Program-made: the position numbers and the translations under genes
In this document: positions 2 through 5,802 of the stretch, in pieces
How the letters are laid out: every line of letters starts with the position of its first letter
Numbering within the stretch: position 1 is the first letter of the stretch
The notes under the pieces: generated by a model
Told to the model about the DNA's origin: nothing
The model's database searches: none
Seen by the model: only the letters and a program-made list of their open reading frames with translations
DNA from: a virus
Taxonomy: Duplodnaviria; Heunggongvirae; Uroviricota; Caudoviricetes
Virus record (IMG/VR): IMGVR_UViG_2663763413_000005
Reading direction: 5' to 3' (one strand)
Length of the DNA: 5,802 nt

Positions 2-208
2 GCAAATCAGGGAAAACTACAGGGTGTGCTGGTCAGCCTGACCAATCTGACCGGCGTGGCGGGCCCGCTGCTGTTTGCTTTTATTTTCAGTCAGACACAG
101 CAGAGTGCGGACGGTACGGTGTGGCTGATTGGCACGGCACTGTACGGTCTGCTGCTGGCAATCTGTCTGCTGATCAGAAAACCGGCACCGGTGGCGGCCA
201 CCTGCTGA
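2..208 (+). CDS. C-terminal fragment of an integral membrane transporter (possibly MFS-type); 5' end lies outside the window
   Basis: Reading frame is open from base 2 to a TGA at 206-208 (the track ORF 26..208 begins at an internal GTG). Translation is strongly hydrophobic (…[14 protein letters not shown]… and …[18 protein letters not shown]…), consistent with two transmembrane helices followed by a short charged tail. Family assignment is by general resemblance only. Confidence 0.4.
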
Positions 209-302: not shown

Positions 303-542
303 ATGAAATCACGCGCAGCAGTCGCCTTCGGGCCGGGTTTACCCCTTGAAATTGTTGAAATTGATGTGGCACCGCCGAAGAAAGGTGAAGTGCTGGTGAA
401 AATCAGTCACACCGGGGTATGCCATACCGATGCCTACACGCTTTCCGGTGATGATCCGGAAGGTCTGTTCCCGGTGGTGCTCGACCATGAAGGTGCCGGG
501 GTGGTGGTTGAGGTCGGTGAGGGCGTGACCAGTGTGAAACCT
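303..542 (+). pseudogene. frmA: S-(hydroxymethyl)glutathione dehydrogenase / class III alcohol dehydrogenase, N-terminal ~80 codons only (3'-truncated remnant)
   Basis: ATG at 303 is preceded by AGAGGA (288-293). Translation [80 protein letters not shown] matches the N-terminus of E. coli FrmA/AdhC as I recall it. The match ends at about 542; the frame then runs on to 635 through unrelated Ala/Phe-rich sequence that is the antisense of the stf remnant. The track ORF start at 234 is an upstream alternative start. Confidence 0.7.
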
Positions 543-1000
543 GCGCTGTTAGCTGCGTTCGTTTCTGAGGTTTTCGCCGCGTTCTTCGATGATGCCGCTG
601 CTGTTTCGGATTTCTTTGCCGCCGCTGCGCTCTGAGAGGCGGCTTCAGCGTTGCGTGCCGCTTCTTCCACCATTTCCTCAAAACGACGCAATGCCTCCGG
701 CATGACATCATCTTCCGTCATGGCACCGAGAAAATCATTCAGCGTCCCCGGCTTAGAATCTTCATACACGGTGATGGTCCCGGCATGTGAAGGCGGAAAA
801 CCTTCAACCAGCAGGATAACGCTGTACTGGCCATACTCAACATCCATGCTGTAACGCCCGGCTTCATCCGGATTTTCAGAGGCCACCGTGTTCACCAGTA
901 CCGTGGTGCTGTTACGCTTTGCCTTCAGTTGAATAGTGCAGTTCTGTATTGGTTTTCCCGCACCATCTTTCAGCACACCTGAGATTTTTACTGCTGCCAT
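540..1000 (-). pseudogene. stf: Side tail fibre protein Stf, N-terminal ~150 codons only (3'-truncated); the ORF reads on into antisense frmA-like sequence to a stop at 434
   Basis: ATG at 998-1000 (minus) with GGAG five nt upstream. Translation MAAVKISGVLKDGAGKPIQNCTIQLKAKRNSTTVLVNTVASENPDEAGRYSMDVEYGQYSVILLVEGFPPSHAGTITVYEDSKPGTLNDFLGAMTEDD… matches the N-terminus of lambda Stf (orf401), followed by the Ala/Ser-rich repeat region. Similarity stops around …[12 protein letters not shown] (about 540-555). The remaining 33 codons ([17 protein letters not shown]…) are the reverse complement of the frmA-like gene. Confidence 0.75.
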
Positions 1001-1011
1001 ATCCACTCCAC

Positions 1012-1038
1012 AAAAAAGCCCGCCTGAACCGGCGGGCT
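1012..1038 (-). terminator. Rho-independent terminator downstream of lom (minus strand)
   Basis: Minus-strand reading is AGCCCGCC-GGTTCA-GGCGGGCT followed by TTTTTTG: an 8-bp GC-rich stem (plus 1017-1024 / 1031-1038), 6-nt loop and T-tract (plus 1012-1017), placed between the lom stop (1065) and the stf start (1000). Confidence 0.6.
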
Positions 1039-1064
1039 GTCATAACACTGTGTTACCTGGCTAA

Positions 1065-1664
1065 TCAGAACTTATAACCGACACCCACGATGAAACCGTC
1101 AGTGCGCCAGTCACCACTGCCGGAGCCTTCATAAGCAATATCAATGGCCACGGATTCGGTCGGGTTAAACTGCACGCCAGCTCCCCACGCCAGAGACGTG
1201 TTGCTGTGGCGACCGTCATCACTTCCGGTCAGCACATCGTGCGTTTTCCCCTTGTTGTCAGTTACGCGGAGGTAATCCCCGGAAAAAGTCGAAACACGGC
1301 TGTAAGCCATACCCGCCATCGCATACGCGCTGAACCATTCATTCACGCGCACAGACGGCCCCGCCATCACGCTGAACCAGCGGTTACGCACGGAATCTTT
1401 ATGCCAGCGGGTATCGCTGTAACGGGTCAGCTGACGATTCTTGTATCCTGCATAACTGAATGACGTCACCAGCCCCAGCGTGTCCGTAAATTCATAACGG
1501 TATTTCACGTTAATGCCCTTCAGGTCATCACTGCCTGGCATATCAGTATGGGTCTGAAGATACCCGGCGCTTAGTGTGGACTGATGCTCTGCTGCGCTCG
1601 CTGGCGTACCAGCGGCAACCAGCCAGACTACTGCGGACAGAATAACAGCACATAATTTACGCAT
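1065..1664 (-). CDS. lom: Lom outer-membrane protein (Ail/Lom/OmpX/PagC family 8-stranded beta-barrel), intact
   Basis: 199-aa ORF with ATG at 1662-1664 and GAGAGG Shine-Dalgarno 6-7 nt upstream. Signal-peptide-like N-terminus MRKLCAVILSAVVWLVAAGTPASA, C-terminal …GFIVGVGYKF ending in an aromatic residue as in outer-membrane beta-barrels. Near-identical over most of its length to lambda Lom as I recall it. Confidence 0.92.
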   Translation of the reverse strand: MRKLCAVILSAVVWLVAAGTPASAAEHQSTLSAGYLQTHTDMPGSDDLKGINVKYRYEFTDTLGLVTSFSYAGYKNRQLTRYSDTRWHKDSVRNRWFSVMAGPSVRVNEWFSAYAMAGMAYSRVSTFSGDYLRVTDNKGKTHDVLTGSDDGRHSNTSLAWGAGVQFNPTESVAIDIAYEGSGSGDWRTDGFIVGVGYKF

Positions 1665-1688
1665 AATTACCTCTCGCTTTTCTGCAAT

Positions 1689-1712
1689 AAAAAAGGCGTC
1701 ATTTCTGACGCC
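1689..1712 (-). terminator. Rho-independent terminator between J and lom (tJ-like), minus strand
   Basis: Minus-strand reading is GGCGTCA-GAAA-TGACGCC followed by TTTTTTATTG: a 7-bp stem (plus 1695-1701 / 1706-1712), 4-nt loop and T-tract (plus 1689-1694), lying between the J stop (1732) and the lom start (1664). Confidence 0.7.
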
Positions 1713-2828
1713 CGTATTGGGGTTATAAAATTCAGCTGATACTGATGCCTGCAGTGGCTTTCTTCATCACAACAACCAGCAAATCGCTGATACTTGCTGT
1801 GGGATACCAACCATTTACCCACCATGCTGATACAGAAAACTCCAGTGTCATTACACCACTGCCTGCAGGCATATCAATAACACCCGTGTAAATCAGAGTA
1901 TTATCCAGAGCCGTTCGGTTATAAATTTCAGCCCCGTTTTTCTTCACTATCAGGCGGCATGACGAATAAGTATCGCTATTCTCCCGCTCATGTCTGGCAC
2001 CGCAGAAAGCCACCGCTGGAATAACAATTTGCCGGTCAAACGACTGATCGTCATAAACCCTGACGGTAATAGTCCCTGATGGCCACCGCTCCGGTGCACG
2101 GGAGTCCCGGGGGAAAGCTTTGCCCACTGTTTTAACGAGATCGCCTTCAATCTGGTTCGCGGACAGTTTTCCCAGAACCCGACAGTTCTCGTTAATCGTG
2201 ACATTATTGAGCGTCCCGGAGTTCGCATTCACGTTACCGCTGATATCGGCATTTTTCGCCGTCAGCCGCCCGTCCGGTGTCAGGGAAAATACCGGAGGAT
2301 TGCCGCCACTGGTAATGGTGGGAGCCGTCAGATACTTCAGGAACACTTCGTTCATGAATATCTGGTTGCCCTGCGCCACAAACATCGGCGTTTCATTCCC
2401 GTTTGCCGGGTCAATAAACGCGATACGGTTAGCGGCAACCAGGAACTGGCTCAGTTTGCCTTCCTCCGTATCCTCCATACTAAGGCCAAGCCCCGCGACA
2501 TAATGCCTGCCGTCTTCGGTCTGCTCAATTTTGACGCCCCACATGGCATTCCATTTATCGTTGGCGTCCTTCCACTCTTTCGAAAACTCCTCCAGTTTGC
2601 TGGCGTTATCCTCCGTCAGCTCGACTTTTTCCAGCAGCTCCTTGCCGAGATGGGATTCGGTTATCTGGCCTTTGAAAAAATCCAGGTAACCTTCCGCATC
2701 ATCGCTCGGCTGACCAACAGCCTCCACGAATGCCGATTTGCCAACGGTGTTCACACTGCGGATATAAAAGTAATAATCATGGCCCGGTTTGATATTGATA
2801 CTGGCAGCTATCCAGTACAGCGCCGTAC

Positions 2829-2873
2829 CAAGATAGCGGGCTGTGGTCTCAAGATAGCGGGCTGTGGTCTCAA
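2829..2873. repeat. Perfect 21-bp tandem duplication (unit AGATAGCGGGCTGTGGTCTCA at 2831-2851 and 2852-2872)
   Basis: Read directly from the sequence. In frame within J, duplicating the peptide ETTARYL. Confidence 0.9.
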
Positions 2874-3210
2874 CCTGCCTGATATCGGTAATCCGCTTTT
2901 CCGAGAACCAGAACTCAAACTGTACCGTCGGATCATAAACCGCAAGATGCGGCGTGGCAGTTATCTGAAAATAGCCCGGCGTCAGCTCAATCCGCGACGG
3001 CGCTGCCGGTGCGGCAATCCGGAACGATACCGATGCCGGATCGCCCTGCTGTCCCCACGCATTTACCGCCCGGACCGTCAGCGTGTAACGCCCCAGCGCC
3101 AGTTGCCTGAAGCGGTATGTGGTTTCCGTCGTCCTGGCCGTGCTGACCAGCCGCTCACTGCCGTCATCCGCTGCCACGGTCAGGCGAAGCATAAAGCTCA
3201 CCCCCTTCAC

Positions 3211-3269
3211 CACCTTCGGCGTATCCCAGCGCGCCAGCACCTTCGGCGTATCCCAGCGCGCCAGCACCT
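3211..3269. repeat. Perfect 27-bp tandem duplication (unit ACCTTCGGCGTATCCCAGCGCGCCAGC at 3212-3238 and 3239-3265)
   Basis: Read directly from the sequence. In frame within J, duplicating the peptide LARWDTPKV. Confidence 0.9.
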
Positions 3270-3541
3270 GATACTCCCCGCTGTCTGAGGTGACTTCGGC
3301 AGTCAGGTGCTGCACCGCAGGCGGCGTGACACCATTCACCGTGCCGCTCTGGTCGCCGTCAAAGTGCGCCCCGTTATCCACGATGGCCTCTTTTTCCGGC
3401 ACATGCTGCACGGCGGTGATGGCATACGTGCCGTCGTCGTTCTCACGGATACTCACGCAGCGGAACAGGCGCTGGCGCAGCGTCGGCAGCTTCAGCCCCC
3501 ATACGCTGTATTCAGCAACACCGTCAGGAACACGGCTCACT

Positions 3542-3555
3542 TTTACCTTTACCTT
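3542..3555. repeat. Short 6-bp tandem repeat (TTTACC x2 plus partial), encoding a KVKVKV run in J
   Basis: Period-6 identity over 3542-3555. Protein reads [12 protein letters not shown], where lambda J as recalled has [10 protein letters not shown]. Confidence 0.6.
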
Positions 3556-3652
3556 CACGCCGTCGGTGACGGACTGAACCTCCACGCTGACCGGATTGCC
3601 ACTTCCGTCAACCAGACTTATCAGCGTGGTACCGGAGGATGGCAGCGTGATT

Positions 3653-4225
3653 TCACGGTCGAGCGTCAGCGTCCGGGTCTGGCTGTTCACCGCCAGCCAC
3701 GCGCCCGCCGATGCTGATACCCGCATAGTCATCATCACAGATTTCAATGACATCCCCCGGTACATGGCGAAGCCCTTCCGCACCCACGCTGAAGTCCACG
3801 GTCTGCGTTTCCAGCAGTTCCGTTTTAATCAGCCACAGCCCGGCGCGGTGCGCCTGCCCCCGGCTGGTACAGCCAAAGGCATCCATCTTCGTGACGTTAC
3901 GACCGTAACGGGCAATGGCCTGCGTATCTTCAACAAGCTCTGTCGCCGTCTCCCAGCCGTTGTTCGGGTCAATCCAGTTCACCTCAACGGCATTATGGCG
4001 GTCCTTCAGGGCGCTGAAGCTGTAGCGGAACGGCGCGCCATCATCCGGCATCACCACATTACTGCGGTTATAGGTCCACACCTTATCTGATGGTCGGTCC
4101 TGCACGAACGTCAGCGTCTGCCCGTTCCATACCGGCATACAGCGCATCGCCGAGCAGAAATCACTGAGCACATCCCACGCCTTGCGCTGTGTGGTCAGCC
4201 AGGCATTACAGGTGATGCGCGGCCT
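3653..4225 (-). pseudogene. J: J fragment 2 (middle), in the +1 frame relative to fragment 1
   Basis: Part of track ORF 3653..4330. Translation from PRITCNAWLTTQRKAWDVLSDFCSAMRCMPVWNGQTLTFVQDRPSDK… through …[22 protein letters not shown] matches lambda J, then runs out of frame ([14 protein letters not shown], stop at 3653). Confidence 0.8.
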
Positions 4226-4247
4226 CATTACAGGTGATGCGCGGCTC
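4204..4247. repeat. Near-tandem direct duplication: 20-bp unit CATTACAGGTGATGCGCGGC twice (4204-4223, 4226-4245) separated by CT; net 22-bp insertion
   Basis: Read directly from the sequence. Located inside J and coincides with the first frame break. Confidence 0.9.
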
Positions 4248-5204
4248 CGTGCCACCAAAGCCATCCGGCACCGACTGGTCGCAATTCTGGCCGATGACAT
4301 ACAGCGCCCATTTGTCCACATCCGCCGCACCGAGACGCTTCCCCATGCCGTAGCGCGGATGGGTCAGCATATCCCACAGACACCAGGCCATGTTGTTGCT
4401 GTATGCTGGCTTAAACGTTCCGTCCCAGATACCGCTGTATTGTCGCGTCTGCGGGTTATAGTTCGACGGCACCTGCAGAATGCGCCCGCGAAGATGATAA
4501 TTACGACTCACCTGCTGGCTGCCGAACTGCTCCGAGTCCACCTGTACGCTGACCAGTGCCGTGTTCGGGTAGCACTGTTTCACATCGATGATTTCGGTGT
4601 ATGACGACCAGAGCGTTTTGTTCTGCAGCTGGTCTGTGGTGCTGTCCGGCGTCATCCTGCGCATCCGGATATTAAACGGGCGCGGCGGCAGGTTATCCAC
4701 CACCACCGAGGCCAGATACTGCGAGGTGGTTTTGCCTTTAATGGTGATGTCTTTTTCCGTCACCCAGCCACCGTTACGCTGTATCTGAACCAGCAGGCGG
4801 ACTTCCGACGGATTCCGGTCCCCCTTTGAGGTGGTTTCCACCAGTGCCTGCACACCGAAGGTAAAGCGCAGACGGTCGATGTTTGCAGACGTGATGGTCC
4901 GGGTAATCGGCGTGTCGTACTTCACTTCCGTACCCAGCACCGTCTCGGAGCCGGAGGATTCAAATCCCTCCGGCGGTGTCTGCTCCTGCTCACCTGCCCG
5001 GAACACCACCGTGACACCGGAGATATTGGTATTCCCCTCACTGTCCAGCACCGGCGTACTGTTCAGCAGCACACTTTTTAATCCGTCCACCGGACCTTCA
5101 ATCGGCCCTTCACTGATGGCGTCTATCACGCTCAGCATCTGGGATGATTTCAGGTTGTCCTTCGCTTCGCGCGGGGTATGCCCCTTACTGCTGCCTTTAC
5201 CCAT
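4206..5204 (-). pseudogene. J: J fragment 1 (N-terminal, 332 codons), ending at a premature TAA created by the 22-bp duplication
   Basis: Track ORF 4206..5204. Translation matches the lambda J N-terminus up to …GGTEPRITCN, then reads EAAHHL and stops. Confidence 0.85.
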
Positions 5205-5226
5205 TCCTCACGCTCCAGAAACGACA

Positions 5227-5246
5227 AAACCGCCCTGAGGCGGTTT
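5227..5246 (-). other. Inverted repeat / hairpin in the I-J intergenic region (possible weak terminator or RNA structure)
   Basis: Plus strand AAACCGCC-CTGA-GGCGGTTT (8-bp stem, 4-nt loop). On the minus strand it is followed by TTTTGTCGTTTCT, which is only moderately U-rich, then the J Shine-Dalgarno sequence. Confidence 0.3.
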
Positions 5247-5264
5247 CACACAAAACATTCTGCA

Positions 5265-5802
5265 TCAACGACCAATCACCACAACCTGACCACCATCTCC
5301 TTCATCTGCCGTGCTGATCTCCTGCGAAATCACCCGTGACCCCACGCGCATTTCACCGTACAGAACCGGCAGAACATTGCCCTGGGCAACCATGTTATCC
5401 AGTGAGGAGAAATAGGTGTTCTGTTTGCCGTTATCCGTTGTCTGTGTACGGGGAGTTCTGGCTTTCGGTGCCAGCATCTGCGCCACACCACCGAGCACCA
5501 TACTGGCCCCCGCACCATACATTCCTGTAATTGCGGCAGCCCCCAACCAACCTGCAGGGTTCCACCATGCCACCGCAATCAGCGCCGCCCCCAGCACACT
5601 GCCTGAAAAAGACCGCCACTTTTGGCTCCCGCCAGACGCGGCACAATGTGGATCACGGCACCATTTGCCAGCGGTTCATTAAGACGGGCGGATAATTCAG
5701 TTTCACCTGCATCACGCCCGGCAATACGTACCTGATACCAGCCGTCGCTCAGTTTCTGACGAAACGCCGGAAGCTGTGTGGTCAGCGCCCGGACTGCTTC
5801 GG
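5265..5802 (-). pseudogene. I: Tail assembly protein I, 5' end outside the window, with a frame break near 5598-5606
   Basis: From the window end, one minus-strand frame reads EAVRALTTQLPAFRQKLSDGWYQVRIAGRDAGETELSARLNEPLANGAVIHIVPRLAGAKSGGLFQ and then hits TGA within a few codons. The I-like sequence continues in a different frame as VLGAALIAVAWWNPAGWLGAAAITGMYGAGASMVLGGVAQMLAPKARTPR…VVIGR (track ORF 5265..5597). Both halves match lambda I as recalled. Confidence 0.8.

Follow-up and report, generated by a model that had tools for sequence, protein, structure and literature searches.

The tetracycline resistance gene tet(D) is carried on E. coli chromosomes and plasmids within a module of the order IS26-tetR(D)-tet(D)-truncated dehydrogenase-Tn2'(blaTEM-1), examples being NZ_CP026723, NZ_CP098201 and pMB7671_4, and a published survey has described chromosomal tetD flanked by IS26 and Tn2' (PMC7407071). 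In annotated examples tetR(D)-tet(D)-dehydrogenase lies between IS26 or Tn elements that delimit the region; yjiM is the neighbour of one such island. The dehydrogenase is a member of the Zn-dependent class III alcohol dehydrogenase family, to which the frmA (adhC) product of E. coli K-12 frmRAB also belongs. The other relevant system is a lambdoid prophage which adjoins sitABCD in E. coli UPEC132 (NZ_CP040456) and at least nine other complete E. coli genomes; it possesses an intact Stf of 799 amino acids, further tail-fibre genes, a tfa remnant and an intact J protein of 1131 amino acids.

The window analysed here, a stretch of 5802 nucleotides, is the entire contig AOQJ01000313.1 of the draft assembly GCA_000397385.1, as was established by exact look-up of the 110 amino acid chimeric product that it encodes. 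The listing of its open reading frames together with similarity searches revealed two unrelated blocks (Table 1). In nucleotides 1–541 the 3' end of tet(D) precedes a class III alcohol dehydrogenase gene of which the first 80 codons are present; nucleotides 542–5802 contain the tail region of a lambdoid prophage on the minus strand, with the start of stf, lom, J and a partial I-like gene. Both components are ordinary, one being a widespread tet(D)-dehydrogenase module and the other a common E. coli lambdoid prophage. Only the join between them is unusual, and as a feature it is most likely not real. The two contig ends, at 1 and 5802, fall within tet(D) and within the tail assembly gene, respectively, neither position being an obvious repeat boundary; this fits a low-coverage, fragmented assembly.

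Table 1. Features of the 5802-nucleotide window (contig AOQJ01000313.1)
Feature	Position	Strand	Remarks
tet(D) 3' end, tetracycline efflux MFS transporter gene	2..208	+	Cut by contig start; gapless 99.8% identity to records annotated tet(D); 68 aa product in the gene caller listing touches the contig end
tet(D)-linked class III alcohol dehydrogenase (S-(hydroxymethyl)glutathione dehydrogenase), first 80 codons	303..541	+	369 aa if intact; DNA identity and Pfam
Read-through tail of stf ORF	434..541	-	35 codons and stop codon; reverse strand of dehydrogenase gene
Blunt junction	541..542		Bases C, T; last base of dehydrogenase match 541, first base of stf match 542
Read-through tail of dehydrogenase ORF	542..635	+	30 codons, stop codon 633–635; reverse strand of stf
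stf, lambdoid side tail fibre gene, first 153 codons	542..1000	-	N-terminal domain and start of Ala/Ser-rich heptad repeats
lom (Ail/Lom outer membrane protein)	1065..1664	-	Intact
J, tail tip gene	1732..5204	-	Split into three ORFs; contig-specific insertions
Tandem duplication, 21 nt	2829–2849		In J
Tandem duplication, 27 nt	3211–3237		In J
Tandem duplication, 6 nt	3542–3547		In J
Tandem duplication, 1 nt	3697		In J
20-nt duplication separated by untemplated CT	4204–4225		In J
Tail assembly gene (lambda I-like)	5265..5802	-	CT insertion, substitution at 5690; runs off contig end
Bare CT insertion	5599–5600		In I-like gene

The plus-strand frame 303..635 specifies 110 amino acids, the first 80 of which, ending in ...GVTSVKP, match a class III alcohol dehydrogenase of 369 residues with a single difference, Gly61Asp. 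It contains Pfam domain ADH_N at residues 27–79 (E = 6.1e-12), covering positions 2–55 only of the 104 in the profile; with 80 of 369 residues followed by an out-of-frame tail, the frame falls short of a full-length dehydrogenase of ca. 369 amino acids with complete catalytic and Rossmann NAD-binding domains. At the DNA level the identity with tet(D)-linked dehydrogenase copies extends, without gaps, to base 541. A substitution, G485A, causes the conserved GHEGAG motif to read DHEGAG, with loss of the invariant Gly of the zinc-dehydrogenase motif. It is situated 56 nt from the join and does not occur in any of the hundreds of tet(D) modules that otherwise have the same sequence; low coverage probably led to an erroneous base here.

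Nucleotides 1–541 show 99.8% identity to the tet(D)-plus-dehydrogenase module on 481 plasmids and in IS26/Tn2-bounded islands. The plasmid hosts include Klebsiella, Enterobacter, Citrobacter, Salmonella and others, nearly all of the copies having 99.8% identity and being annotated beside tet(D). Only 39–40 of 5426 complete E. coli genomes were matched by bases 1–560 at megablast sensitivity, with an approximately even split between chromosomes and plasmids, and each match is annotated beside tet(D). The gene is therefore an accessory, tet(D)-linked copy rather than the core frmA, and the frmRAB context (frmR upstream, frmB downstream, core chromosome) is absent from the window, tet(D) being the upstream gene. 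An earlier examination based on the letters alone, hereafter the sequence-only reading, had termed the gene frmA-like; the family assignment stands (ADH_N), while the identification with chromosomal frmA does not, and a chromosomal frmA lying beside a prophage was ruled out. The same reading proposed one deletion that removed the right end of the phage together with most of frmA. This picture is inapplicable because bases 1–541 derive from the mobile tet(D)-dehydrogenase module; furthermore, the prophage adjoins sitABCD in its closest relatives.

In 20 of the 39 E. coli records carrying the gene the dehydrogenase match stops at base 540. Three of these 20 were inspected; in each, the position corresponding to base 541 marks the start of the 38-bp inverted repeat of Tn2 (GGGGTCTGACGCTCAGTGG...) plus blaTEM-1, the reference junction being GTGTGAAAC followed by GGGGTCTGACGCTCAGTGG. 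Compared with the IS26/Tn2' module, to which bases 1–540 are 99.8% identical, the window has its dehydrogenase gene cut at the same place within 1 bp, i.e. the breakpoint lies 1 bp from a common Tn2 inverted-repeat boundary. It differs in that the cut is followed by prophage stf instead of the Tn2 inverted repeat of the module, and in that base 541 is C, in agreement with the intact dehydrogenase gene, and not the G of the inverted repeat.

On the other side of the join, the minus-strand frame 434..1000 encodes 188 amino acids from an ATG, or extends over 434..1006 from a GTG. Its first 153 residues, to ...TNAANSA, match the 799 amino acid Stf of the closest prophage, and residues 3–132 contain the prophage tail fibre N-terminal domain phage_tail_N (PF08400; E = 4.7e-70). 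Identity to stf starts at base 542, and nucleotides 542–1700 are 100% identical to complete E. coli genomes; over the start of stf the identity is 100% with UPEC132 and at least nine other complete E. coli genomes. The order J-lom-stf is that of the reference prophage, in which stf specifies its 799 residues from the same ATG as the frame in the window; the remainder of that stf, beyond the part shared with the window, occupies positions 2908409–2910349 of NZ_CP040456. Since the match ends at residue 153 of 799, the repeat shaft and the C-terminal receptor-binding region are wanting, as is tfa; the sequence-only reading was correct in stating that neither tfa, nor a b region, nor an attachment site follows stf in the window. 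The breakpoint is located inside an array of the gene with a period of 21 nt. Periodic repeat arrays of this kind are a classic obstacle for short reads.

In the UPEC132 record the region of stf (positions 6060–8465 of reference extract L004) is annotated as several partial or pseudo coding sequences, namely an incomplete tail fibre N-terminal domain protein, a 'phage tail protein' and a 'head spike fiber' protein; even so, a single open frame of 801 codons runs through the DNA unbroken. The repeat-rich middle of stf seems to confuse automatic annotation.

Alignment of the window with both parents demonstrated that the two genes abut bluntly at 541|542, with zero shared bases and no overlap. 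The intact dehydrogenase gene reads G at position 542, and in place of the C at 541 of the window stf also reads G. The main structural observation of the sequence-only reading, that two convergent 3'-truncated genes meet near 541 and that each runs on as a chimeric ORF, was borne out by both DNA and protein alignments. Its breakpoints, given as about 542 for the dehydrogenase and about 540–555 for stf, reflect real, abrupt ends which are now placed at 541 and 542, respectively, and, as it anticipated, the similarity is not continued past about 545, the dehydrogenase identity ending at 541 and that of stf beginning at 542. The overlap of a few bases which it reported does not exist. The chimeric tails are present, with 30 residues after the dehydrogenase part and 35 after the Stf part in place of the 31 and 33 that it had counted; each is an antisense reading of the opposite gene, and the amino acid string of the dehydrogenase-ORF tail recurs in an antisense ORF of the intact UPEC132 stf (7843..8094 of L004).

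The search for microhomology recommended by that reading found none: the best local alignment at the join scored 8.5 against a mean of 8.3 for shuffled sequences. No IS26 or Tn2 terminal sequence is present at 541|542 in the window, and a Tn2- or IS26-mediated adjacent deletion as the source of this exact junction was ruled out because such events retain the end of the element, which is absent here. A comparison with related genomes, also recommended, revealed the intact prophage in UPEC132 and others and no other copy of the junction. None of 5426 complete E. coli genomes, 72,556 plasmids or 50,697 phage records contained it, and 30- and 38-mers spanning it were absent from the GTDB representative genomes (one per species), IMG/VR and the JGI metagenomes. 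The 110 amino acid chimeric product is recorded only in AOQJ01000313.1 and forms a one-member cluster among ca. 15 billion proteins. Exact look-up of the 188 amino acid chimeric Stf product gave no match, its frame not having been called as a gene. The tet(D) module and the lambdoid prophage were never found adjacent to each other in complete genomes.

Comparison of nucleotides 542–5802 with the UPEC132 prophage disclosed six insertions and one substitution; apart from these, prophages of at least nine complete E. coli genomes have exactly the sequence of the phage part. The insertions, together with the loss of stf after codon 153, are what distinguish the window from a prophage of the UPEC132 type. 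As a result of them J is divided into three ORFs and the I-like gene is broken. None of the six was present in any other copy examined, whether in complete E. coli genomes or in phage J genes. The best complete-genome matches are nine equal-scoring copies with 4024 bp against 4103 bp in the window, and among the phage matches listed those to full-length J span 1824 bp against 1901 bp in the window. The 652 amino acid J fragment containing the duplications is a singleton. With six indels and a single substitution the ratio is the opposite of that produced by natural divergence, especially when set against a sequence that is otherwise invariant across strains from several hosts and countries, and the six insertions are most likely assembly errors. 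A comparison of the duplicated J blocks with stretches shared exactly with J paralogues, using five proxy J genes, gave no clear pattern of coincidence either way, and in the literature nothing specific was found on duplication artefacts at contig joins. The lone substitution, at 5690, lies 112 nt from the contig end.

The 541|542 junction is in our judgement probably a technical misjoin which does not exist in the genome of the strain. The window resembles short-read misjoins and unmerged overlaps as they are generally known, in that small tandem duplications and stray bases recur at regular intervals, unrelated sequences abut bluntly beside repeats, and all this is confined to one contig. 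We infer that the join and the six other anomalies are technical in origin. The window would have been stitched together from about eight short pieces of some 150–2300 bp. At six of the seven joins, sequences that are truly adjacent would have been joined faultily, leaving either unmerged overlaps (the tandem duplications of 1–27 nt) or a stray CT, and at the seventh two unrelated ends would have been brought together. In the real genome the tet(D) piece probably passes into the Tn2/blaTEM-1 inverted repeat immediately after dehydrogenase base 540, the prophage piece would have halted where the 21-nt periodic repeat array of stf starts, and a normal stf together with the right end of the prophage is probably to be found elsewhere in the assembly. 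The chimeric ORFs would then be no more than meaningless read-through onto the opposite strand.

Several observations bear on this explanation. The junction is unique to one assembly, with singleton products, and its contig displays other structural errors of the consensus, namely six indel-type joins absent from every other copy examined. The dehydrogenase end lies 1 bp from the Tn2 site that terminates the match in 20 of 39 records and the stf end lies within the 21-nt array; judged from these reference sequences, both broken ends would be at places where short-read contigs are expected to end. The lack of a recombination signature at the join, the proximity of G485A as a sign of local quality and the singleton status of the junction also argue for an artefact, which is likely, not proven. 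On the same footing, the deletion or recombination scar envisaged by the sequence-only reading is less well supported than an assembly artefact, given the short draft contig, the six other errors of join type and the ends beside repeats. Against a misjoin, a source cut by Tn2 requires one wrong or stray base, since the C at 541 fits neither Tn2 (G) nor the preceding base of stf (G). In addition, the six other joins link truly adjacent sequence; being collinear, they imply that the stitching used real linkage elsewhere, so that the join of dehydrogenase and stf might also reflect real proximity.

One alternative is that the junction is real, an intact tet(D)-dehydrogenase module having been fused to the prophage by end-joining-like illegitimate recombination with no insertion sequence involved. 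Dehydrogenase codons 81–369, Stf codons 154–799 and the right end of the phage would have been lost, and tet(D) would be cargo at the tail-fibre end. The contig crosses the join without Ns, base 541 fits the intact dehydrogenase gene and not the Tn2 inverted repeat, and the remaining joins are collinear with the reference, the sequence not being scrambled elsewhere. Blunt junctions without microhomology do, moreover, occur in bacteria. We nevertheless consider this explanation unlikely. No collection searched contained a second copy of the junction, the same contig bears six other structural errors, and boundaries of resistance modules are normally formed by IS26 or Tn ends, of which there are none here. 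An independent break in an intact dehydrogenase gene would also have to lie no more than 1 bp from the site at which Tn2 is commonly inserted, for which the chance is roughly 3 in 1110.

A further possibility is that the two blocks are true neighbours in the genome and that a repeated element between them was dropped by the assembler or gap closer, its unique flanks being butted together. The likely element would be the Tn2'/blaTEM-1-IS26 segment which normally comes after dehydrogenase base 540, and the real structure would be a resistance island inside the prophage stf, bounded by the end of a mobile element. The position of the dehydrogenase end, 1 bp from the Tn2 inverted-repeat boundary, agrees with this, as does the fact that truly adjacent pieces were linked, albeit badly, at the other joins; repeat contigs are commonly skipped during scaffolding. 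It is nonetheless very improbable, for a composite query of the complete E. coli genomes found no IS26 or Tn2 terminus within ca. 750 bp of the broken part of stf, the known islands of tet(D) type are located elsewhere, e.g. beside yjiM, and Ns, which normally mark the place of a skipped repeat, are absent. Whether the contig arose by misjoining or by omission of a repeat, the cell would contain no junction of the form written here.

If the junction is an artefact, as is likely, its value is cautionary. The chimeric ORFs of the contig and its 'pseudogenised' J and I genes are present in public protein collections as singletons, and analyses of gene content or of prophage decay would misread both as biology. 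The converse, a lambdoid prophage in which tet(D) is fused directly to what remains of the side tail fibre gene, the boundary lacking an insertion sequence and the resistance gene occupying the place of the non-essential right arm, is in our opinion unlikely. Were it true, a lambdoid prophage would contain, unusually, an antibiotic resistance gene that is not bounded by an IS, which bears on the carriage of resistance genes by temperate phages, and if in addition the defects in J and I were only sequencing errors the phage could package and spread tetracycline resistance. It would still be one strain-specific event in a familiar module and a familiar prophage.

Three minor observations may be added. 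The junction bases 541–542 are the dinucleotide CT, the same pair which is found between pieces at 4224–4225 and 5599–5600 and which could represent residual adapter bases or tool-specific filler; the agreement speaks for a misjoin. The C at 541 also fits the intact dehydrogenase gene and the T at 542 also fits stf; if the match is not due to chance the dehydrogenase piece would end exactly at 540, which is suggestive only. Secondly, in the phage collection MW057783.1, named Campylobacter phage CJLB-4 (host C. jejuni), contains a J gene with 91.5% identity over 1.9 kb to the E. coli lambdoid J of the window, the same match as that of phage HK630, which suggests that the record is a lambda-like contaminant or mislabelled. 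Finally, GC-rich hairpins beside runs of A occur at 1011–1040, 1688–1712 and 5225–5247, appearing on the minus strand as stem-loops followed by runs of T; they come shortly downstream of lom, J and the I-like gene and, judged from their sequence, resemble intrinsic terminators separating the late tail genes.
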